This document shows, one piece after another, positions 2,634 to 51,269 of a stretch of DNA of 64,000 nt. Position 1 is the first letter of the stretch, and each line of letters starts with the position of its first letter. A model generated the notes under the pieces. That model saw nothing but the letters and a program-made list of their open reading frames with translations, was not told the origin of the DNA and did not search any database. Location of the stretch: assembly GCA_964016885.1 (NCBI GenBank), contig OZ024740.1:353958001-354022000 (forward strand). The letters run 5' to 3'. Source of the DNA: Eledone cirrhosa (lineage: Eukaryota). The position numbers and the translations under genes were made by a program.

Positions 2634-2712
<79 letters not shown>

Positions 2713-2832
2713 CTGAGTTTTTCGAATATTAATAATAATATTCGATTCGTTTACAATTATGCAAACAGCCTCTTTTATGTCATGTCAGTAGAATGGGCCC
2801 CTCATTCCTGCTCTTGTGTTGGCATGTAAACA

Positions 2833-2882
2833 GAACTGCAGACACTAATGTTTCTGGGTATTACCCTTCATCAGAACAGTTC
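2833..2882 (-). ncRNA. Type I hammerhead ribozyme
   Basis: Minus strand reads GAACUGUU-CUGAUGA-A GGGU AAU ACCC A-GAAA-CA UUAG UG-UC^-UGCAGUUC. Helices I, II and III all pair; GUC cleavage triplet. Confidence 0.8.
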
Positions 2883-2944
2883 ACTGTTCACCTGCCAACA
2901 GTCAGAGCTAGTGAAAATATATGGTATTTTCTAAAATATACAGT

Positions 2945-3043
2945 GACTGATTGGCTTGATTTGCATATCAGCAGACTGGCTGATCAGTCAGATCTGCATA
3001 TTAGCAGACCCACCGATCAGCCAGATTTGCATTTCAGCAGACC
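2945..3043 (-). promoter_or_regulatory. Three 33-bp tandem repeats each carrying an octamer(-like) motif
   Basis: ATTTGCAT 2959-2966, ATCTGCAT 2992-2999, ATTTGCAT 3025-3032 (ATGCAAAT on minus), upstream of the hammerhead. Confidence 0.6.
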
Positions 3044-3319
3044 GTAAGGAAAACTGGAGTCTTTTAAGAATATATATTTACTTTAACGGTTTCAGGGTTC
3101 TTATGATTATCAAAAGTAAAATTGAGATGGAGTTCGAAAATTTTTTCTACAAAAAAAAAAAGTGGTTCGGATTGCTATTTGTTTAAAATGCAATTTTGTT
3201 ATTTGATAGCAGTCACGTGATTAGGTAAAGTAATTTTGCGCCAGAAAAAGTGGCTTAAATTGCTATTAGCGATTTTATTGGTTTGTGACAGTAATTTTTG
3301 CGCCAAAGATGGGTGGTCA

Positions 3320-9139: not shown

Positions 9140-9333
9140 GGGGTACAAACACACCGAGCATTATAATAAATGTTCGGTGAATCCATACGTACATATATAT
9201 ATGTGTGCATGTATGTATATATATATACATACTACTGTACGTCTGTATACATATATGTATGTACGTATGCATACTTATATTTAAGTAACAGCCGTACTAA
9301 GAGTGAGCAATGAAATTTCGTTTCATTTTTTCT

Positions 9334-13052: not shown

Positions 13053-14818
13053 CTTGTTTGTTGAAATGAATATCAAGCCACTACCTGCAGCCTCAGATAT
13101 TCATGGCGTATCGGAGGGTTCTTGCTGTTCCAAACAAGCATGCCTTTTGAAGCGTTCCAAAAAGCGTGAAGGGGCCAATTTTCTTTAACCATCCCTGGAA
13201 ACTTTTTGAGATAGTCCCTAGTGCGCCTATGACAATCGGGATCACCTTGACTTCATGGCAGTTCCAAATCCTTTTTACCTCCCACTTTAAGTCCTGGTAT
13301 CGGTTAATTTTCTCCCTCTCCTTCTCTTGCACTCTCGTGTCGAATGGGCAGGTCACATCCACAATCAGGCACGATCTTTTTTCTTTGTCCAAAACCACCA
13401 GATCAGGTCTATTGTGTTCCAGTTTCTTGTCCGTCTGTATCCTAAAATCCCACAGCACCTTCACCTGATCGTTTTCTATCACCGCCTCTGGCTTATGCTC
13501 ATACCACTTCTCAGAATGTGGTAAATTGTTTACTTTGCATAGGTGCCAGTGGATCACCCTGCCCATCACATCATGTCTCCAGCCCTTATAGTGAGTCTGG
13601 GCTAGGTGTTTACACTCGGATACAATGTGAGCCACAGTCTCCTCTCTCTCTCCACAGATCCTGCACAGTGGGCTAGCCTCCTCCTTGTAAATGTGGTGTT
13701 TCAACCACTTCGTTTTGAGGGCCTGCTCCTGCGCAGCCATTAACATTCCTTCTGTAGCCTTTTTAAGGTCTCCTCTTTTCAACCACTTCCATGTCTGTGG
13801 ATCTCTGAATTCAGTTTTCTCAAAGAAGGTACTATGAAGGGATTTTTCCTGAAGGCTGCTCTTTCTCTTTGATGTTATTTCCTCCTTGGACATCCCCAGG
13901 TCTATTGTCCTCTCCTTCAGTACAGTTCTGAGCATTGGCTCCTTACTACCAGTCACGTATTTGTGTAGGTTGTTTTTCTCCATCTGAACACAGTCCTCTA
14001 TGCTGATAATACCTCTTCCACCTTCAGATCTCCTTAAGTAGAGTCTATCGACATCACTCCTCTTGTGGAACATGTTGTAGATAGTCAATAGCTTCCTAGT
14101 CTTCCTATCCATTTCTTTTTGTTCAGCAACATTCCATCTCAGAATTCCCTCACTGTACCTAATAATAGACACAGCTCGGGAATTTACTGCACTTATGGCA
14201 TTCCTACTGTTCAGATGTGACTTTAATACGCTCCTTACTCTCCGAATGTATTCAGTTCTTATCAATTCCTTCATTTTTTTGTTCTTGATGTCATCAGCCT
14301 CCAGAACACCCAAATACTTGTATCCTTCTTCAGTGTCAATTTCCTTTATCATCTCACCTGTTGGTACCTGGATTCCGTTACTTCTGCTCAATTTACGCCT
14401 CTTCATCACAAGGACTCCACACTTACTAATACCAAATTGCATACATATATCATTGCTGAAAATACGGACAGTGTCAACAAGCACATCCAACTCCTTCTCA
14501 CTCTTCCCGAAGAGCTTAAGATCGTCCATGAAGAGGAGGTGATTGATGGTAAGCCCTCCCTTTCCCAACCTGTATCCTGCTCTCACTTTTCGCAGTACAC
14601 TGGTCAGGGACATCAGGGCAAAGACAAACAACAGAGGGTCTAGTGTCCTGTCCTTCAGTACAATTCTGAGCATTGGCTCCTTACTATCAGTCACGTATTT
14701 GTGTAGGTTGTTTTTCTCCATCTGAACACAGTCCTCTATGCTGATAAGACCTCTTCCACCTTCAGATCTCCTTAAGTAGAGTCTATCGACATCACTCCTC
14801 TTGTGGCACATGTTGTAG

Positions 14819-14820
<2 letters not shown>
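13053..14820 (-). mobile_element. R4/Dong-clade non-LTR retrotransposon, 5'-truncated (RT C-half + CCHC + restriction-like endonuclease)
   Basis: HLLFMDDLKL, YKYLGVLE, CRIC..ETVAHIVSEC, RHD, RPDLVVLD..IVDV..KEREKINRY, IVIGALG; flanked on both sides by (TAA)n. Confidence 0.92.
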
Positions 14821-14863
<43 letters not shown>

Positions 14864-14872
14864 GTTGTTATT

Positions 14873-15061
14873 ACTCTTTGAGTCTCAGTCATTGATGTTA
14901 TTTAACTGGAAAGTTTGTTGAGATGAATATCAAGCCACTACCTGCAGCCTCAGATATTCAGGACGTATCGGAGGGTTCTTGCTGTTCCCAGCAAGCATGC
15001 CTTTTGAAGCGTTCCAAAAAGCGTGAAGGGGCCAATTTTCTTTAACCATCCCTGGAAACTT
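14873..15061 (-). mobile_element. Second R4/Dong 3' end with longer 3' UTR and (TAA)n tail
   Basis: 14914-15061 nearly identical to 13056-13204. Confidence 0.88.
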
Positions 15062-16012
15062 AGCTCTGACAATGCAATCTTCGTGTTTCGCATTGAAGAA
15101 ATGGTCTAATGCCATTCTCGCCGCTAGCACGTCAGTTGCAATGCCACTACCAATAGCCTCGTCTAGCTTATCTACCAACTCCCCCTCCTTTCTATTTTTC
15201 TCTAACGCTACTTCTTTGCTAAACTCTATCGACATTACTCTAATCTCTCTTTTGAGAGCCCCCCACCATCTATTGTTGACGACTCCCCCTGTCAACTTTT
15301 TATTAACTAAATTGTTGACCTGGTCCCTGTAAGCCTTACGTGCCGGAAATGACAGGTTTAGCTTCCAGTAACCAGGTCCCAACCTACGCGTCTTATCTAG
15401 GTCGACCATACAGATCACAAACTTGTGATCTGAATAGGCGACCGTTTCAAAACGTTGACAGCTTACACTATTTCTGTCTATTTTCCTAATGAATATCCTG
15501 TCTATATACGATCTAGATGACCCTATGCGGTTAGCCCAGGTCCACACTGGTGCATTAGGGAAATCTAGTCGGTACCTGTCAGACAGTTGGAACTGGCTGA
15601 TCAGGTTCTTGAGGCTTTTGCACCCCCCGCTCCTATCGGATACTCCCACACAGTCCCAGCGTGCGTCTAAGATGCCGTTCCAGTCCCCCGCTAACAGTAA
15701 AGGGCGAGACATACCCAGAAAGGCTTCCAGGCGTCTAAAGAAGTCCGGCCGTCCTGCCCCAGTAGGAGCATAGACGGCCACCAGTCTAAAAGCACCACCT
15801 TCGTTATTGTTCACGTCCAGGACCACCAACTTCCCGTCCGGGTCCCGGAAGATCGACCTTACCTCGAGATCCGGGCCTTTCCTAAACAGCACTGCCACCC
15901 CGCCTCCCATTCCCGGCCGACTAACAGATGCAAAGATCTGATAGTCGTTGAAAATGGGGGCTAGTGCGCGTGTGTCGGAAATCCTGGTCTCGCTGACGGC
16001 AATTACATCCAT
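15062..16012 (-). mobile_element. Tx1/L1-group ORF2 fragment (AP endonuclease)
   Basis: DVIAVSET, GGGVAVLF, VYAP, LAGDWN, SYIDRIF, SDHK, GPGYWKLN motifs. Confidence 0.9.
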
Positions 16013-16310
16013 TTCTAATGTGCAGGTCTGATGATGTGGGTATTAATCATAATGCTCCTATTACCACAAGGATAGTGTTTGTGGTCATCCTCCACATGCG
16101 GTTGATCTCTATTTTCAGGTCTGGGTGATGGTTGTACCATTTTCCTCAGTTTTCAGATCATAAAACCTGCACATTACGCAGTGTAAGTATTGTCGCACTC
16201 TATCATGCCTCGTTTTATATTCCTGGGCAGTTTATGCCTTGCAGCTTGAAACCAAGTGATCAATTGTTTCAACATGATCATCACAGAATCGACAGTCAGT
16301 AAATATGTGT
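16013..16310 (-). mobile_element. Degenerate R4/Dong fragment of a different subfamily
   Basis: Minus-strand translation CRFCDDHVETIDHLVSSC..YKTRHDRV..WYNHHP // DLKIEINRMW..VVIGAL. Confidence 0.7.
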
Positions 16311-30806: not shown

Positions 30807-31139
30807 GCACACGTACTTACACACATATACATAATACATATATATATATATATAAAATAAGTATGTCAAACATTTTAAATTTGGCTTCGTTTATTATATA
30901 TTCTCTGCTATATATATTTAAGTAACAGCTATTATTCGCTGTGACCTCATCAGGCAGTACGAATTAATATAGAAAAAAAAGGTAAACATGTTGTTGAAAT
31001 GTGTTCTACTCTGTCAATTCATCGATATGTCCAGCTCCTGGTGTGTTGTTAGTCTTCCGAGGAACTGGAATCATATATATATATATAAGTATGCACGCGT
31101 ACACATATATATATATATATATAGATATATATATAAGTA

Positions 31140-31480
31140 TGCACACAGATATATACATATGTACGCATGGGTTATATCGAACATTAATAATAATGTTCAA
31201 TTCGTTTGTAAATAAACGGCCCGATTTGAAGCCATGCCGTGTCGGTGACCGATCATCACCTGTTTGTCCAAAACTGGTTTTGAGGAATAATCAACACATT
31301 TCTGGGCCATTACCCTTTATCAGGACTGTATAACTCTGCCAATCTGTTGAACGGTTGGAAATATATAGTAATTTCTTAAGTACACATCGGCTGAGTAGCC
31401 TCATTTGCATACCGAGCGAGTTACAGCTGGCCTTGCCGAATATTAAATATAAAATTAGAATTTTATTTCTCGCCCTAGCG
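31140..31480 (-). mobile_element. Diverged relative of the 456-bp retrozyme-like family
   Basis: Octamer 31403-31410, hammerhead remnant 31287-31329 (CUGAUAA A GGGU AAUG GCCC A GAAA), shared gaacatt..aatgttc hairpin. Confidence 0.7.
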
Positions 31481-31494
31481 TGTGTGTGTATGGT

Positions 31495-31534
31495 ATGTAC
31501 TAGTTTCAAGCTTGTTAGCTATCGTCAGCACCGT
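31495..31534 (-). ncRNA. Hammerhead ribozyme (inverted copy, helix I 3' strand truncated)
   Basis: ACGGUG-CUGACGA-U AGCU AACA AGCU U-GAAA-CUAG-UA^-CAU. Confidence 0.7.
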
Positions 31535-31782
31535 ATACCCTTCTGCCAGATGGTTGAAAGTTCGAAAGTATATACTTTCCTTATGAAAATTAACGGCTGA
31601 GCCGCCTAATTTGCATATCGAGTGAGTTCAGTCGGCCAGGCGCACCGAAAACGATAAATGGAATAGAATGAAACGAACTTTCATTTCTCACTCTTAGTAC
31701 GGCACTTACTTAAATAGGAAAGTATATACTTAATAAGGAAAGTATATACTTTCGAACGTTCAACCATCTGGCAGAAGGGTAT

Positions 31783-31825
31783 ACGGTGCTGACGATAGCT
31801 AACAAGCTTGAAACTAGTACATCGT
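31783..31825 (+). ncRNA. Minimal type I hammerhead ribozyme
   Basis: ACGGUG-CUGACGA-U AGCU AACA AGCU U-GAAA-CUAG-UA^-CAUCGU; palindromic ACUAGU helix III. Confidence 0.85.
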
Positions 31826-32156
31826 TCCTGTGTCAGTGTTGAACAAAAAGGTGACGTGGTTGCTTTAACACCGTACGGCATAAATCAGGCTGTTCGTTTG
31901 TTTACAAACGAACAAAGCGAACATTATAATAAATGTTCGCTAAACTGATACGTACATATATATATATGTGTGCCTGTATGTATATATATACATGCTACTG
32001 TACGTATGTATACATATATGTATACATATATGTATGTACGTATACATGCATACTTACATTTAAGTAAGTGCCGTACTAAGAGTGAGAAATGAAATTTCGT
32101 TTCATTCTATTCCATTTATCGTTTTCGGTGCGCCTGGCCGACTGAACTCACTCGAT

Positions 32157-32209
32157 ATGCAAATTAGGCGGCTCAGCCGTTAATTTTCATAAGGAAAGTA
32201 TATACTTTC
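32157..32209 (+). promoter_or_regulatory. Octamer + TATA-like palindrome upstream of hammerhead
   Basis: ATGCAAAT 32157-32164; GAAAGTATATACTTTC 32194-32209. Confidence 0.5.
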
Positions 32210-32238
32210 GAACGTTCAACCATCTGGCAGAAGGGTAT

Positions 32239-32281
32239 ATGGTGCTGACGATAGCTAACAAGCTTGAAACTAGTACATCGT
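32239..32281 (+). ncRNA. Minimal type I hammerhead ribozyme (second tandem copy)
   Basis: AUGGUG-CUGACGA-UAGCUAACAAGCUU-GAAA-CUAG-UA^-CAUCGU. Confidence 0.85.
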
Positions 32282-32582
32282 TCCTGTGTCAGTGTTGAAC
32301 AAAAAGGTGACGGGGTTGCCTTAACACCGTACGGCATAAATCAGGCTGTCCGTTTGTTTACAAACGAACAAAGCGAACATTATAATAAATGTTCGCTAAA
32401 CTGATACGTACATGTATATATATATGTGTGCCTGTATGTATATATACATGCTACTGTACGTCTGTATACATATATGTATGTACGTATACATACATACTTA
32501 CATTTAAGTAAGTGCCGTATTAAGAGTGAGAAATGAAATTTCGTTTCATTCTATTCTATATATATATATATACATATATATA

Positions 32583-33628
32583 GCGGCTTCCCGCCTACAT
32601 TAGTAATCTTCTCTGGCTTCTTAATATTCTCTACCAGATACTTCGTCTTAATCTCATTCATTCTTAGCCCCACACTCATCGCGACACAGTCTCCACCTCC
32701 TGCATCAAATCCTCTGCCTCCTTCACTGTGTTTGTCACCAGAACTATGTCGTCGGTAAATTCAGCATCCGATATCTTTTTCGCTTTAACTCTCCTGCTCT
32801 GAGTCGGTGTTACAGTAAAGCCAGAGTCCTGGTGTTTCTCCAGCGCAAGGCACATACAATAGACCACTGCGATGATTAAAAGGGTAGGGAGCCAATGTAT
32901 CTCCCTGGAGCACTCCAGCAAGTATCTCAAAGAACTCTGTCATCCCATCAGGTGTAATGACTTGGTCTTTGGTGTTGGTGTAGAGCAGTGATATCAGGTT
33001 CACTATCTTCTTGGGATTCCATAAGCCTGTAAGATCTTCATCAGGCAGTGACGGTCCACTGGATGAGGACTTCCTGTATCTGGGAGTAAAGATTGGGAAT
33101 ATGGAAGATGATGTGGTCGAGAGGAAGAGCAAAGCCTGGGCCACAGCTTGAGATCGGTGTGGAAGTCGGCCCTTCATAAAGACCTGAAGATCCGTCTCTT
33201 CGTTGCTGTAGCGGAGTCTGTGCTGCTGTACGGGTCTGAGCCTTGGACACTTACCAAGAAACTCACTCAGATGGTGGATGGGTGCTACACGAGAATGCTG
33301 AGGATGGCTCTGAGCATTAATCAGTATACAGTAAGGATGAAGAACTCAGAGCTGTGCGGGAGCCTCCTAAAAGTCAGCTCGAAAGTGACACAGAGGAGAC
33401 TGAGGTTAGCTGGACATGCTCACCGACATCCAGAGTTGACACTGCACTCAGTGCTCCTGTGAGAGCCCCTGCATGGACACACTGGAAGAGGAAGACCGAG
33501 ATTAACATATGTTGATGCCCTAAGGACAGACACTGGTCTGTTGGAGACGCAGGACATGGCAGCGATAATGAGGGACAGAGACCACTGGAGAGAACTCGTC
33601 CATGGATCTCGGGAATTTTGCCCGCCCT
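32583..33628. mobile_element. RTE-clade LINE with 5' inversion, inserted in (TA)n
   Basis: Minus part 32583-33062 (VDRH..GVLQGDTLAP..FTDD..GGKPL) continues as plus part 33062-33628 (EDFLYLG..LLYGSEPW..RRLRLAGH..GRPR). Confidence 0.85.
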
Positions 33629-39149: not shown

Positions 39150-42100
39150 TCACATAAAAATAGTTTGGCAGAACTTTTTGGGCCAGTGGACTCTCCGACC
39201 GGAACGGGTCGTAGTCTTGTATGTAGGTGAAGGTGGGGCAGAAGGAGCAGGTGTATGCACAATTGTGAAAGATTGGGGTATTTGTGGCTCGGGTGTATGA
39301 GCGTCATTGTGTGCCCTTTTCAGTCTATCCACCGAAATTGTCTCTCTGGACCCTTTAACGTCTACAGTGAAATGTTTGTCAGTGCGTGCTAACACACGGT
39401 AGGGTCCAGAGTATGGTTGTGTGAGGGGTGGTCTCACAGCATCGTTCCTTACGAACACATGGGTCCACGAGGCAATGTCCCTCGGGACCGCATGTTTTAC
39501 AGTTTGCTTCCTCGTATCCATCGGCGGCAGGTCCTGTAAATAAGAACGCAGACGGGATACGTAGGAAAGCAGATCTTGGAAAGCAAGATCAACAGGGGCA
39601 AGCATTTGCCTAGGCAACGCTAGAGGAGCACCGTAAATAAATTCGGCCGGGGAGAACCCAAGGTCCGCCTTTATTGATGACCGAATTCCTAATAACACAA
39701 TAGGAAGGTACTCGCTCCAACGTTGAGAGTCTGGATAGGCGCGAAGAGCGGCCTTTAATTGGCGGTGGAATCGTTCCACCATTCCATTTGAAGCAGGATG
39801 ATAGGCCGTGGTCCGAATCCGTTGAGCTTCAATTATTTTGGTGAGCTCAGAGAAGAGATGGGACTCGAATTGTCTACCGCGGTCTGTGGTGAGTGTAGTT
39901 GGTACCCCAAAGCGGGTAATTCACCATGATACCAGGGCACGTGCTACAGTCTCAGCAGTCATGTCTTGTAAAGGGATGGCTTCAGGCCATCGCGAAAAAC
40001 GATCGACACACGTCAATATGTAGGAATATCCACTGCTGAATGGCCAAGGTCCAACGATGTCAATGTGGATGTGTTGGAACCGGGCATCTGGAGTGGTGAA
40101 AGTACCCAGTGGAGTCCGGATGTGTCTATAGATCTTCGATTTCTGGCAAGCGATACAGGAACGGCAAAAAACAGCAATGTCGCGCCTCATATTAGGCCAG
40201 AAGAATCTGGCTGTTATGAGTTAAATTGTGGCAGCCGATCCTGGATGAGAAATGTTGTGCAGAGCCAGGAACACAATTCGACGGTGAGTCTCAGGAACAA
40301 GTGGTCGTGGTGCATCAGTGGATACATCACAAAGGATCTGCCTGTCGGTGGTGGACAAGGGCAGATATTTGAAAATGCAAGTCGCAAATTCGGTAGAAAG
40401 AGTGTCCAACGATTGGAGTGCAGGTTGGTCTGCAGCTAAACGACCTAAATCGATATCCTGGGATGACGAGATGGAGCTAATTGGCAAACGAGATAATGCG
40501 TCTGCAACTATGTTGTGCGAGCCAGCAATGTGCTGGATATCGTTTGTAAATTGTGAAACGTAGTCCAGGTGCCTTGTCTCTCTGGGCGAATATCTGTCGG
40601 CTTTGGCCCTCAAAGCGAAGGTCAACGGTTTGTGGTCGGTAAAAACCGTAAAATTTCTCCCCTCAAGGATATGAGAGAAATGTTTCACCGACAGATATAT
40701 GGCTAATAATTCCCGCCCAAACGTGCTATAACGCGTTTCTGCTGGTTTCAACTTCCTCGAGAAAAATGCCAAAGGTTGTTGGCTTTCAGCGTAAGACTGC
40801 TGTAAAACTGCACCCACAGCGGTATCAGATGCATCAACACAAAGCGAAAGCTTGGCCTCTGGTACCGGGTGGGCTAGCAAAGAAGAACTAGCGAGGGCTG
40901 TCTTGGCAGACTGGAAGTCCTGAAGCTGTCCTTGTGTCAAGGAAATGTCTTCATTCTTCTTACGACGTTTTTTTTAAATGTCAGTAAGGGAAGATAGCCA
41001 ATTAGCACAATGAGGAATGAAACGCCTATAGAAATTGATTAGGCCTAAGAAGTGACGCAACTGGTGAAGTGTAGTAGGCGGCGGTAACTCCTGTATGGCT
41101 TGAACTCGCTCAGGGAGCGGCCTTCGGCGTCGATGAGGTGGCCTAAAAAATGTAGGGAAGTGGAACCGAAAACACACTTTGCAGGATTCACGCGAACGCG
41201 GTAATCCTGAAGTCGCCGAAGTAAGAGAAGCATGTGGCGCATATGCTCTTCCGGAGAGGAACTAGCGACGAGAATATCGTCTATGTAAGCATAGACGAAG
41301 TCCAGACCACGCGTGACCTCGTCTATGAACCGCTGAAAAGTGCTAGCGGCGTTCCTGAGTCCGAAAGGCATGGTCAAAAATTCGAATGATCCGAAAGGGG
41401 TTGTAATTGCAGTTTTCGGAATATCCTCCTTCCTGACCGGAATTTGGTGGTAGGCTCGCACTAAATCTAACTTAGAAAAAATCTTACACCCCTGCAGTGA
41501 AGATGCAAAATCGTGGAGATGGGGAATGGGATACCTATCCGGGACGGTCATGGCATTTAACCTCCTATAATCCCCCGTGGGTCTCCAGTCGCCGGAAGTC
41601 TTGGGAACCATGTGTAACGGTGAAGCCCAAGGACTCGTAGATGGGCGAATAATGCCCAGCTGCAGCATATGGTCGAACTCGGACCGTGCTGCCTTTAATT
41701 TTTCCGTCGGTAAGCGGCGTGGGCGCGAAAACACTGGGGCACCGGTGGTGGAAACAAAATGTTCGGTCGAGTGTGTTGGGTCAGTGACTCGAAAATTTCC
41801 ATCCGTGAGCTCCGGGAAAGAACCCAGTAACGCATGGTAAGCGTCACCAGCGGCAGCGATAAAGAACACGGGGCTGACTATTGGGGCCTTGGCTTCCTGG
41901 CCATGAATTGAAAAGCCGGTGATGTTATCCACCAGGCGTTGGCCACGGACGTCCACAGTTAAAGAGAAGTTGTGGAGGAAATCCGCTCCTAAGATGGGAT
42001 ATGGCAAATCGGCAACCGTAAAAATCCACTTAAAATCCCTTCGAAGATTTAGGAATTTAAGAGGGAGCGAGATTTGCCCGTACGTCTTTATAGACGAGTG

Positions 42101-42295
42101 GTTAACTGCCTGCAGCGTGACAGATGACTCTATGGGGGTATCTTTCAGGCAATGGACCGGCCAGATACTACAGAAGGCTCCTGTATCCACGAGGAAACCT
42201 CTTCCGGATATTAGGTCCTTAATGAAGAAATGGCGGTTTGGTGGCTTTATGTTGAGGCCATCTGTCCCCATCAGAGGACCTCTTAAGCGTTTCCC
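39150..42295 (-). pseudogene. pol: Gypsy pol (protease, RT, RNase H, integrase) with stops/frameshifts
   Basis: [45 protein letters not shown]; split across ORFs 41045-42271, 40974-41177, 40221-40940, 39921-40190, 39150-39782. Confidence 0.93.
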
Positions 42296-43077
42296 GCCTT
42301 ATGATAGGAGCAAGGTTGCACGCAGTGCTTCGCGTTCTCCGCGAATCGCTCGTGGTACCAGCATAAGGCTGAACCAGGTGATTTGGACCGCCGTCTGAAA
42401 CTTTGCGATCTCCCGCGACTGCGGGAGCGCGAACAGCCACCACACAAGGCCTTCATCTTGTGGAGCTCCATGGTGAGCTCCTGAATGGACCTTTGCATCG
42501 CAATGATAGCCAAGCTATCTGTTGGTGCTGCCGCGTAGATCGCATGGCCGTGTGTGGCCCGAGCTGGGTGTTGAACAGCGGCGAGGGGGTCGCTGTCTCC
42601 GGCATTCGTCACCTCGAATATCTTGTCCGCCGATGAGGCAAGCTGCTCAACCGAGCTCGAATCCCTCATGGGGGCCAAAATTGCCTGTACGTTCGTCGGC
42701 AGGTGCGAAAAGAACAACTGCTTCAGCAGGGCAGTTTCCGCTGCAGACCCCTCCGTTAGGTCCTTCATCCGCCTAAGGAGGTTCGATGGTGTGCCATCCC
42801 CTATGTGCTCCAGGTGGACCAGAGCCCTAAATCTCTTCTCTGACGACTGTTCTGTCCGGCTGAGTATTTCAGCCTTCAGAGACGCGTACGACGACTCTGT
42901 CGTTGCCTCCAACACGAGGTCCTTGACCGCTGGGAGAATTGCCGGCGGAATGGCACTGAGGACCACAGAATGCTGTAGTTCCTCGTCGACTCTGTTCGCC
43001 CTGAAGAAAGCTTCTAATTGCGAGAACCACAACCTTACGTCGCCCGTGTACGTTGGCAGAACAGAGTGGGAAGCCAT
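42283..43077 (-). CDS. gag: Gypsy gag
   Basis: 264-aa ORF with [17 protein letters not shown] and C-terminal [12 protein letters not shown] motif. Confidence 0.88.
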
Positions 43078-43543
43078 TGGTATGCCGTAGTGATCTACCG
43101 TTTGGGAAAAATGTCTCTAAGGTAACAGTAAATGGAAACTAAAATCTTTCGTCAGAGCACTGAACCGGAAAACTAATGCATCCGGGACAGTGTGCGAACA
43201 AGCGATTACTTGAATGCTGTTATCTACGTTAATTTCGGGAGACCTAAAAACTCAACTAAAAAAAATCCAACATGGCGGACTATTTCGCGCCAAAACACTA
43301 TTTAAAGAGAAGAGAGACTCCATCTTGTCATCCTCATAAAAAAATTTTTTTTTTTTTTTTTTGCGAGAGAAGCGAAAGGCAGAAAAAGGAGAGAAAAGAG
43401 AATGGTGAAAACATTTATAGAATTGTGGTTTGTCTGCGTGTCAATAATTGTAGGTGTTATATTTTTCTCTTTTTTTTTTTTGTTTGTGTCTTATATCATA
43501 TCAGATACACCGTATACCATTTCCCATTGAAAAAAAAAATAAT

Positions 43544-47305: not shown

Positions 47306-47641
47306 TGCTCAAGTATAGCTCTTTTTACAAAACGTTTTTTTTTCATTTCAGGTAGACGAACTCCATCATGCACTTTTCTAAAAAAACTAATCATACACAA
47401 AATGCCAGCACCAAGAGTTTTGAAAGAGATGTCAACAGGAATGGACCTGTTATTTTTATCTAAAGACATTTTTTCCAATCCACCCAGCCCATCCCCTCAA
47501 TCTATTTTATTTCTCATTCTTTCTTCTGATGAAAGCCTAGCGTCCGAAACGTTAAGACCCTCTTCCTGCTATACCATGTGTTAATCTAATATATACCTTC
47601 CATATACTGTACCGATTGTGTTGTTATTTCTGTTTACCTTT

Positions 47642-48326: not shown

Positions 48327-51269
48327 CAGAGTAATTCGTGGTAGAGGGATGGTCAGTAGGAATATGTCTGTAAGTGAGTGAGGGATATTTTAACATGTTA
48401 AAAGATATTTTTCAGCTCTTGTCTTATACGGAGAAGTGTGTGTGCGTGTGTGTGTGTAGCAGAGTAATTCGTGGTAGAGGGATGGTCAGTAGGAATGTGT
48501 CTGTAAGTGAGTGGGGGATATTTTAACATGTTAAAAGATATTTTTCAGCTCTTGTCTTATACGGAGAAGTGTGTGTGTGTGTGTGTGTGTATAAGTCTCT
48601 TTGTATGTTAATGTACGCGTGTGTATGTGTGTGTGTGAGAGAATGTGTGTGTGTGTGTGGACCAGTATTTTTTTCCTGGTAAAATGGTGTACATTATTCG
48701 ATATTTTCAGTAAAATCGATTCTCTCAATAGAACATCAAAAACCTTAACAATAAAAGGCGTGAAATGATATTCACTATATATATATATACATATATTCAC
48801 TATATATATATATATTTTTTTTTTTGTGTTGCACCATAGAACATGTGTGTTTACGTATGTCATTGTGTTTATATGTGGGTAGAGATGTGTGCTGATGTAG
48901 GTATGTATGTTGACGTGTGTATGTTGTGGGTTCGTCTTAGGGAGAAGTGTTTAGACGGAGTCCGTATTTATTAATAAAGTAAGATTCCTTGTTGATGCGC
49001 TGGGTGTGGGTGGCATTACCTTTAAATTTGTAGAGGGGAAAGATTCTGAAGTTGGGATGATTTTGGGCGGCACAGGTATCAATGTGTTCACTCAGTGGTA
49101 TTTTCCTGTATTCCCGTATTTTAATTTGGGATCTGTGGACAGTCATGCGTTGGCGGAGGCTGTTTTTGGTCTGGCCTATGTATTGTTCTCGACAACCTGA
49201 GCAAGTTAATACATATATTAGATTTTCCGATGCACATGTGAAATTGTGTTTTACTATAAAACGTTGTCCTTCTTTGAAATAGAATTCCGAACCCTCTATT
49301 AGGTTGATGCAAATGCCACAGCTGGGTCTATCGCATTTTTTTACTGTGGGTTTCGTTGTTGTGGTTGGCAGTACTTTGGCATGTGTTAGGAACGTTTTCA
49401 TTGACTTAGATTGTCTTTTGCTCTTTATAATATCGTGTGTTCGTAGGATTTGGTTCATTCTATGGTCCTTTTTCAACACAGGGATGTTCTGGAGGATGGT
49501 GTCAAAGGCCTCATTGTTGAGGGGGTTGTGTGTGGAGATGTATGGAAGAGCTTTTAGTTTCGGTTGATTTACTTTAGGGTGTCTAAGGTCCTGGGTACTG
49601 AATTTTAGGGCACGTTGGATTCCATTGTCAATTAGTGATGCAGGGTAGTCCCTGCCTATGAGTGTGTCTTTTAGTTCTTGTAGCCGTAAGTAGCAGGTGT
49701 TTTTATAGTACAGATTCTCTTGGCTAAGTTGTAGGGAATATTAATTTTAACGTGTCTAGGGTGGCAAGAGTTGAAAGGAAGATATTGCTTGGAGTCTGTG
49801 GGCTTGTAGTATATGTCTGTTTCTATTTTTTTGTTATGGATCTTAATGAGGATGTCGAGGAAGGGGAGTTGTTGATGGCTGTATTCCATTGTGAAGTTAA
49901 TATTCGTGTTGAGCCCATTTATAAGGGTGTGAAATTCTTTAAGTTTTTCGATGGTTTCGTGCCAAAGAATGAAGCAGTCATCTAGATATCGCTTCCAGTT
50001 CCTTTCTATGTGTAAGTGGAGAGTGTTTCCAAATTTGTTTAGGACTTTAGTGTAGAGGGTGATTTCCAGGTATCCCATGACTAGGTTGGCATAAGTGGGG
50101 GCTGTTTTCGTTCCCATAGCGGTCCCAGATTTCTGCCTGTAGGGTTTGTTATTGAAAACGAAGTAATTGTTCTCCAAGATGAATTTGAGTCCCTCTATCA
50201 CGAATTCTTTTTTGATGCGTTGTGGGAGTTCATTGTGGTAATTATCCAGCCAGAATTGGATAGCTTCTATTCCTAGGTTGTGGAGGATGTTGGAGTATAG
50301 GTTGACTACATCGAACGTCACTAGTAGGGTTTGTTCAGAAAGTGGCATATTAGGGAGGTGATTGAGCATATCTAGGTCGTCCCTTATATAGCTTTTGATG
50401 TGTTTGAGAAAGGGCTTGAGAAGGGTATCAATGAAGTTGCTAAGGCGGTGGGTTTCGCAAACGGGGCCTGCTATTATAGGTCTTAATTTGAGATCATTGG
50501 GTGAGGGGACATTGATGACTATGTTTGTGGCTTGCTTGCATGCCTTACTTATTAATTCGCTTTTATGTACTTTAGGGATACCGTAGAAAAGGCTGGATTT
50601 ACTTGTGAAGTCTGTGATGACGCTGAATTCCTTGTTAGTGAGTCCTTCTTTGTATTGGTTGATTAGAGATTTTAGGTTTCTCATAATTTCTGTTGATTGT
50701 AGTGTTCAGCCTTTTCGTAGTATGTTTCGTTTTCCAAAGTGGAGAGCGCTAAGTTGATATAGAATTCTGTCTCCATTAGGACTACTGTACTAGCTTTATC
50801 AGCCTCTTTAATTGTAATGGTTCTGTCGGTTTTTAATCTATTTAATTCTTCCCATTCTTTCTTGTTGAGGTTTGGCTTGTGTTTTTGTCTGTGCAAGTGT
50901 TGGTAAGGAAAGTTTGTGATGTGTTCACAGAATTCGTCCAGGATTTTATTTCTACCTTTTGATGGGGTGTAATTGCTTCTATTTCTGGCTAATGATTCAT
51001 CCTCATTGTACTGGTCGAATAGTTGTTCACTGAGTCGTAACTTTCTACAGAAGTCTGTGATGTCTTCCTTCATTTCATAGTAGTTAGGACGTAGTGGGGG
51101 TCGGTGTGAATTTAAGACCTTTGGAGAGTAAGTTGATAAGGTTGGGTGTTGGTTCTGCACTAGTAAGATTGATAATTTTTATTACTATCGGTTTCTCCTC
51201 CCTGTCTTGTGTTATTTTGTTTGCCTGTATCTGTGTGCTGTGTCTAAAAAATGATTGGGGTAGAGGGGT

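Follow-up and report, generated by a model that had tools for sequence, protein, structure and literature searches.

How are the hammerhead repeats of Eledone cirrhosa transcribed and mobilised, and how does a new copy come to carry a promoter? The question is raised by positions 31287..32281 of a 64,000-nucleotide stretch of contig OZ024740.1 (the window), where a first-pass annotation had described a promoter/ribozyme module of octamer, TATA-like box, TGGCAG and hammerhead core. The layout it reported was reproduced. The distance from ATGCAAAT to the core is 88 nt in the first element (32157(+) to 32245), 87 nt in the second (31410(-) to 31323) and 92 nt in the third (2966(-) to 2874). TCAG, a box resembling TATATA and TGGCAG lie in between, and the helices differ by family. 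The assembly is 3.0 Gb in size, and the window is AT-rich, with many microsatellites and Penelope-type fragments.

The interval and its surroundings hold a family B copy on the minus strand, an inverted partial copy of family A and a family A array of 1.8 units. The array (31730..32563, +) is a head-to-tail arrangement of about 1.8 units of a 456-bp monomer, truncated at its 5' end within the promoter and running at its 3' end, tail site 2, into (TA)n. Its octamer ATGCAAAT occupies 32157..32164 (+), -72 from the predicted +1, followed by a PSE-like core, TCAGCCGTT (YCAG-N4-T), at 32173..32181 (+; -56), a TATA-like box at 32199..32204 (+; -30) and TGGCAG at 32225..32230 (+). The last of these contains a predicted C|A initiator, which would place +1 at 32229, and is also the 5' strand of a helix that pairs with a downstream TGTCAG. 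The type I hammerhead that follows (32239..32281, +) has a 6-bp helix I, a 4-bp helix II, a palindromic helix III (ACTAGT) and a GUA triplet, with a predicted cut after 32275; the first hammerhead of the array (31783..31825, +; core 31789), a possible dimer partner, lies 456 nt upstream. A 3' hairpin common to families A, B and C is found at 32372..32397 (+; z -6.3), and a tail bounded by two fixed 3'-end sites at 32054..32119 (+), with site 1 at 32061 and site 2 at 32119. The inverted partial A copy (31495..31713, -) consists of promoter and hammerhead (octamer 31616, core 31528) and stops 3 nt beyond the predicted cleavage site. The B copy (31065..31479, -; lower boundary approximate) is older, with an octamer at 31410, TCAG at 31394, TATATA at 31367, a decayed core at 31323 (CTGATAA...GAAAT), the hairpin and a microsatellite tail. 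The family C copy (2700..3045, -; boundaries approximate) has an octamer at 2966, TCAGTCACT at 2950, a CATATA box, a core at 2874, a GUC triplet and an extended helix I, and ends at site 1 into (CA)n. Its octamer+TCAGT unit is present three times with a 33-bp period (2958-3043, -), and one of the repeats, TCAGTGGAT, resembles a U2 cluster promoter. Beyond the three modules first listed, the window thus contains a further octamer at 3032 within the 33-bp triplication, an octamer at 31616(-) with core 31528(-) and a core at 31789(+); its remaining four octamers (49307, 51758, 44701 and 1771) are without such a module. Also observed were a 3' fragment of an A-type copy with hairpin and microsatellite tail (9145-9277, +), gag/pol/integrase-like frames of the LTR-retrotransposon type (39150-43116, -) and RTE/LINE-like fragments (13093-16042 and 32785-33345).

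Families A, B and C are homologous along their whole length, from promoter to tail, and are therefore not independent examples. Their ribozymes are type I hammerheads with a CUGANGA/GAAA core, three helices and an NUH triplet, which is GUA in A, GUU in B and GUC in C. Helix I comprises 6-8 bp and helix II 4 bp, and helix III is very short and, in A and B, palindromic. The base of helix II is U-U in A and A-A in B and C instead of G-C; the G10.1-C11.1 pair is absent from all three, and an Rfam scan of the window gave no match at the gathering threshold. These are variant ribozymes whose cleavage is predicted. The core is intact in 73 of 87 units of A, 20 of 31 of B and 27 of 39 of C. Among the intact units the helix I and II pairs are kept, though their sequences differ by family, in 70-73 of 73 (A), 17-20 of 20 (B) and 22-27 of 27 (C). 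The isolated ribozymes fold no better than shuffled sequences (z 0.7, -1.7 and 0.2). The form resembles the canonical metazoan hammerhead, which is described as cleaving as a dimer (PMC4209133), and a preprint reports that eight of nine predicted frog retrozymes failed to cleave in vitro (bioRxiv 10.64898/2026.07.22.740005). TGGCAG, which the first-pass annotation had read mainly as a promoter motif, has a downstream pairing partner in 75 of the 77 units of A, 24 of the 28 of B and 29 of the 32 of C. This helix spans +1 and would therefore form only in read-through or circular RNA.

The elements have a GC content of 0.31-0.38, lack an LTR structure and contain no open reading frame of at least 120 aa. 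Judged by these features they are very probably non-LTR retrozymes, a class already known (PMC7229834); with a snRNA-type promoter in a newt hammerhead repeat also in print (PMC2220036), the earlier description of an undescribed system does not stand. The enrichment of octamers upstream of hammerheads that it anticipated was borne out genome-wide: ATGCAAAT-N74-88-CTGANGA-N12-18-GAAA was matched 22,513 times and its reversed control 7 times; for a tighter four-motif pattern the counts were 783 and 0. Such counts reflect repeat amplification, not independent origins. A 24-nt pattern from the body of family A was matched exactly 28,289 times in the genome; family B yielded 2,407 first-look candidates, and the best other copies are 87-90% identical. 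Arrays of A reach 10 units, while B and C occur mostly as single or partial copies.

A pattern combining the host promoter motifs with half a hammerhead core (1,610 matches versus 307 for the control) exposed three further families, D, E and F. Family D (3,189 body matches) and family E have no octamer; in family F (1,806 candidates) an octamer stands 8 nt before the core, as in A, B and C. Exact 310-bp head-to-head arrays of E are 100% identical on several chromosomes (L396-L410, L349); E is the youngest family and is likely mobile now. Where a hammerhead could be recognised in body-anchored units, the core stands 77-81 nt ahead of it in four of four E, five of eight D and five of 11 F units; the search expression detected no core in 22 of the 30 loci of D and 4 of the 15 of F. 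The agreement is partly built in, because the six families have a common ancestry and the motifs were part of the pattern by which D-F were retrieved.

The snRNA promoters of the same genome served as the reference. The Pol II set comprised 15 distinct U1, U2, U4 and U5 promoters, reduced by similarity from 53 loci (L051-L134, L313-L320), and the Pol III set five genes (three U6 types, U6atac and RNase MRP; L031-L033, L210, L215). They form two compact classes, both with a TATA-like box. All 15 Pol II promoters have [TC]CAG[TC] at -55 to -58, 14 have a TATA-like box near -30 and 11 have AATTAAWT at -88 to -91; an octamer within 300 nt was found in one only. The class consensus is YCAGY-N3-T at -57 with a box at -30; AATTAAWT at -90 is common but not constant. 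In all five Pol III genes ATG(C/G)(A/T)AAT.AG lies at -76 to -78 and TATA at -30, and none has the TCAG core. As a by-product, both snRNA promoter classes of the lineage are now defined.

The elements match the first class in geometry. With +1 inferred at the A of TGGC|AG, octamer, core and box lie at -72/-56/-30 in A, -73/-57/-30 in B and -74/-58/-31 in C, the loci measured having been retrieved with promoter-containing queries. The interval from core to TATA is 26-27 nt across the six families and 26-29 nt in the hosts, and the T eight nt past the core start, which was not used for anchoring, is present in six of six families and 15 of 15 host promoters. A Fisher test of the agreement between families and hosts gave P 0.004; since core and TATA had served to anchor both sets, the value is partly circular, the +8 T being exempt. 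None of 17 frequent variants of family A falls in the motifs (P 0.02). AATTAAWT of the host Pol II promoters was not seen in the elements.

A matrix trained on the 15 host promoters only was then scored over about 128,000 window positions. It ranked the C copy first, the B copy about sixth and the A copy in the top 0.75%, and within its own element the A copy ranked first of 430 positions; the four window octamers outside the elements scored at background. Family A, the largest, matches the matrix weakest (TCAGC, score -3.6). Leave-one-out scores of the host promoters themselves ranged from -5.8 to 29.7, and at held-out U11 and U3 loci the matrix peaked at -56/-57 in six of eight, with scores of -2.8 to -3.9 versus -3.6 for A. 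The core TCAGTCACT is common to family C and one U2 promoter.

We consider it quite probable, from this comparison of sequences, that the elements carry a Pol II snRNA-type promoter with its start at the predicted A. The placement of an snRNA-type promoter just 5' of helix I in the first-pass annotation agrees with this, since TCAG core, box and predicted +1 match the host Pol II geometry. The octamer, which it had treated as defining, is missing from D and E and from the 300 nt examined in 14 of the 15 host Pol II promoters. The key motif of the module, by the host comparison, is the one written there as 'tcag.c'. We take the octamer of A, B, C and F to be an optional activator element 8 nt ahead of the core, comparable to that of the host Pol III genes.

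A U6-type (Pol III type 3) promoter, in which octamer, PSE and TATA would drive a short RNA ending at T runs, had been the first reading and was demoted after the comparison with host U1/U2/U4/U5, U6atac and MRP genes. The extended octamer with TATA at -30 does characterise five of five host Pol III genes, as against an octamer in one of 15 Pol II genes, and B and the host RNase MRP gene share ATGCAAATGAGGC. In A monomers, moreover, runs of T4-T7 are absent for about 300 nt after +1 and clustered just before the next promoter. However, the octamer of A, B and C stands about 4 nt closer to +1 (72-74 nt) than that of the host Pol III genes (76-78 nt), none of which has TCAG; the octamer is missing from D and from the very young E, both of which have T4-T5 runs within the body; and the promoter would be missing from a short RNA, yet propagated copies include it and extend through T6-T7 runs, and their 5' ends do not accumulate at +1. 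We regard a U6-type promoter as improbable. In flies, counted from the start of PSEA, PSEB occupies positions 30-37 and TATA positions 34-41, so that the promoter classes are described as separated by a 4-nt offset (PMC1761439), as is the octamer here from that of the host Pol III genes. By its sequence, then, the promoter has a core and spacing of the Pol II type and an octamer that resembles host Pol III genes, and the A promoter may be used by both polymerases.

The motifs might instead be relics or RNA-folding motifs, with the mobile RNA supplied by host read-through of intronic or intergenic copies. The families are homologous, TGGCAG is explained by its pairing, the monomer including the promoter region folds strongly (z -9.5, inflated by palindromic microsatellites) and the 5' ends of copies give no start-site signal. 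Against this, the positions fixed over the six families (YCAG, the +8 T, TATA and the spacing) are those fixed in the host snRNA genes while the spacers vary, and the youngest family, E, still has the motifs in arrays that are identical throughout. A relic is quite improbable on this evidence, and the Pol II snRNA-type promoter remains the preferred reading.

If transcription would start within each unit, the next question is how the RNA re-enters the genome, and here the 3' ends of arrays are informative. They fall into two clusters 39-58 nt apart, which account for 46 of 51 ends in A, 17 of 22 in B and 32 of 33 in C, a few rows being cut by the end of the retrieved segment. The two sites are used by 20 and 26 of the 51 A ends, 8 and 9 of the 22 B ends and 20 and 12 of the 33 C ends. 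Ends run into a dinucleotide repeat, mostly (TA)n, in 38 of 51 (A), 6 of 22 (B) and 26 of 33 (C) cases. Loose ends at 32119 in public contigs agree; of four contig sets, three gave coverage and possibly derive from the same sample, and the fourth, from another organism, gave none. Partial tandems, inverted 5'-truncated copies and AT-microsatellite targets also occur in the elements. For Penelope-like elements, inverted truncated copies have been described (PMC8557442), and in an anole element of this kind the tail lies between two reverse-transcription start sites (PMC11167929). From these ends the elements are likely to be non-autonomous and mobilised by a Penelope-type enzyme, for which the genome offers a candidate.

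A candidate active Penelope-type element at L305:4299-7948 (+) has two overlapping frames, an upstream one of 455 aa (no Pfam match) followed by one of 784 aa (RT+GIY-YIG). Its family occurs as a 4.7-kb tandem unit with many identical 784-aa frames and is apparently active, and a decayed copy lies in the window at 48937-51178 (-). The cysteine linker suggests the label 'Neptune-like'. In this family too, copies terminate at either of two sites, separated by 42 nt, and run into (TA)n. The first end, CATTTTCTATTCCGTTTAC, is similar to site 2 of family A, CATTCTATTCCATTTAT, over about 25 nt; the best match of the CATTTTCTATTCCGTTTAC end in the A monomer falls exactly at site 2, a score that 4 of 300 null sequences reach (A1 only). 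As the window contains a second element with a similar end, the resemblance may be a property of the clade. The terminal region of the active family contained no match to the hammerhead, octamer or core at 25 loci, which makes the family a candidate for the enzyme, not for the source of the promoter. No autonomous partner contiguous with the repeats was found in 120 loci, and no pLTR homologous to the repeats in the active family or the window fragments. Nearby Penelope fragments were considered as the partner and proved to be separate insertions in the four loci inspected. An element at L142, L143 and L163, which we take to be Nematis-like, is represented by three copies that start at nearly the same internal point, which suggests a deleted subfamily. 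Hammerhead-like cores also occur in the window at 47526(+), 34229(-), 27195(-) and 10112(-), some of them adjoining Penelope-type frames; none of the four has an octamer or PSE-like core at the offset seen in the elements.

These Penelope-type sequences bear on a further alternative, in which the repeats would use an ordinary mRNA-type Pol II promoter like that of a Penelope pLTR and the snRNA likeness would be incidental. TATA at -30 and a Y|A initiator are generic, and Penelope pLTRs are described as containing promoters (PMC6765202). Such a promoter leaves unexplained the position of the core at exactly -56 to -58 and the matrix ranks, and neither the four Penelope-type cores of the window nor the 25 active-element loci have an octamer or a match at the offset. 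We consider an mRNA-type promoter very improbable compared with the snRNA-type one.

An snRNA promoter lies outside its own transcript, so only RNA that crosses the promoter of the next unit can pass it on. The first-pass annotation had proposed that one monomer drives the next, and the logic of the arrangement fits. Units within arrays are more alike than units from different loci (divergence 0.037 in 106 pairs within loci versus 0.091 in 1,423 pairs between loci), and the nearest neighbour was in the same locus for 39 of 56 units and in another for 17. At L196, all seven units, one of them inverted, share five variants absent from the other sampled loci. Microsatellite length nevertheless varies between the units of one young array. 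The 5' ends of 100 body-anchored A units did not pile up at +1 or at the cut site. In 45 of these units a 5' end fell within 225 nt, at evenly scattered positions, four of them near +1 and one at the cut site, counts in which seven rows are affected by a faulty A2 reference (four counted as continuing, three falsely ending at -127). The 3' end lies near the cleavage site in one of 128 A cores, the inverted copy of the window (31495-31498, -); this end looks as if primed from a cleaved RNA end.

A repeatedly copied monomer template explains both the homogeneity and the evenly spread 5' ends best, and on these patterns we think it reasonably probable that the template is a circular monomer; homogeneous source arrays or local duplication are possible origins of the homogeneity. 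A version that keeps the promoter as proposed and dispenses with the circle would have linear, uncut multimers as the template and arrays arising from template jumps or DNA duplication. It differs from the favoured explanation in one step, and the weights given to the two overlap. The anole element offers a precedent, as in vitro it did not depend on ribozyme cleavage and used mainly RNA that had not been processed (PMC11167929), and both the single end near the cut site and the microsatellite variation within a young array are consistent with it. It accounts less well for the variants shared by all L196 units including the inverted one, for the lack of an excess of 5' ends at +1 and for the maintenance of catalytic cores and compensatory helices, and we hold it to be unlikely.

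Taken jointly, then, a host-type Pol II promoter, cleavage, circularisation and Penelope-type insertion of retrozymes probably explain the locus. Pol II would transcribe each unit from the A of TGGC|AG, and the ribozymes, probably as dimers, would cut the RNA into monomers that circularise. A Penelope-type enzyme would then reverse-transcribe the RNA into (TA)n sites. The cut-to-cut monomer contains the promoter, and rolling reverse transcription of the circle would rebuild multimers. The genome allows this explanation to be put as exact predictions: at which nucleotide transcription starts, which 9-bp core is used and how the motifs are spaced, where the circle is joined, and which enzyme, present in intact copies, is the candidate. 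It also contains families, E and young A, that look currently active. The explanation bears on how animal retrozymes are transcribed and mobilised. If true, a retroelement can inherit a promoter that lies outside its transcript, and one genome holds more than 30,000 dispersed SNAPc-type sites.

Among known systems, non-LTR retrozymes are closest in form. Like these elements, they are described as short tandems, of 150-450 bp in print, with GC below 45%, a type I hammerhead and a short palindromic helix III, with no LTR or ORF and a strongly self-paired monomer; axolotl HHR_Amex2 even has the U-U mismatch at the base of helix II found in A (PMC7229834). The monomers here measure 310 bp in E and 420-556 bp in A, depending on the microsatellite, and the 456-bp A monomer of the window is slightly above the published range. 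Self-cleavage of retrozymes gives linear and circular monomer RNA (PMC7229834), as would be predicted for the elements here. The main text of that paper names no promoter of the elements, only T7, in contrast to the host-matched snRNA-type promoter and Penelope-type ends described here. Non-LTR retrozymes have been proposed to be non-autonomous Penelope derivatives, an argument made from frog pLTR similarity and not from insertion ends, in an accessible text that does not mention promoter, snRNA, octamer or octopus (bioRxiv 10.64898/2026.07.22.740005). In the literature searched, from which most subscription papers fall outside, no snRNA-type promoter was found in an invertebrate retrozyme, nor were these families. 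A squid genome is reported to have 235 Rfam hammerheads (PMC6962438), and the main text of an octopus repeat annotation does not mention 'hammerhead' (PMC13282606).

Non-autonomous Penelope-like elements share partial tandems, an inverted 5'-truncated copy, an optional tail and AT-rich microsatellite targets (PMC8557442, PMC11167929, bioRxiv 10.64898/2026.07.22.740005), with a tail of 30-40 nt in print against 39-58 nt here. In Schistosoma Sm-alpha the promoter likewise precedes the hammerhead in tandem and the upstream unit transcribes the next, but Sm-alpha is described as Pol III-transcribed (PMC6765202) and the match here is to Pol II snRNA promoters. Other retroposons are linked to snRNA genes or to SNAP50/TBP (PMC4494074, PMC8190864). 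SINEU elements have snRNA sequence without the upstream promoter (Kojima 2015, PMC4494074), whereas the elements here have the promoter without the snRNA; in trypanosomatids, the 77 nt of Pr77 form an internal promoter that goes with a ribozyme of the HDV type (PMC8190864). Kojima's account, as far as its accessible text goes, places snRNA promoters upstream and reports no internal one (PMC4494074). An external promoter of this kind is not self-inherited, which is the problem that a circle would solve.

Newt satellite 2 is a close parallel in transcription, being a tandem hammerhead repeat for which Pol II transcription is reported, with a promoter of the snRNA type lying within the repeat (PMC2220036, PMC6765202). 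It belongs to another phylum and is likened here by description; in the elements of E. cirrhosa the promoter uses the host's own core together with a TATA-like box and an octamer that is only 8 nt away, and insertion is dispersed, with Penelope-type ends. We put forward a wider reading only tentatively, as a doubtful one. Animal retrozymes would be mimics of snRNA genes, and the role of hammerhead and circle would be to transmit an external SNAPc promoter, which an ordinary SINE is unable to inherit, with newt satellite 2 and the six-family superfamily as two instances of a general rule. The promoter would be a chimera of Pol II core and spacing with a Pol III octamer, and the tens of thousands of copies would still be spread by an active Penelope-type element with two ORFs, family A having a 3' end that imitates its own. 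What the present comparison adds to a class already known is the documentation, in its sequences, of an snRNA-type promoter and Penelope-type ends in retrozymes.
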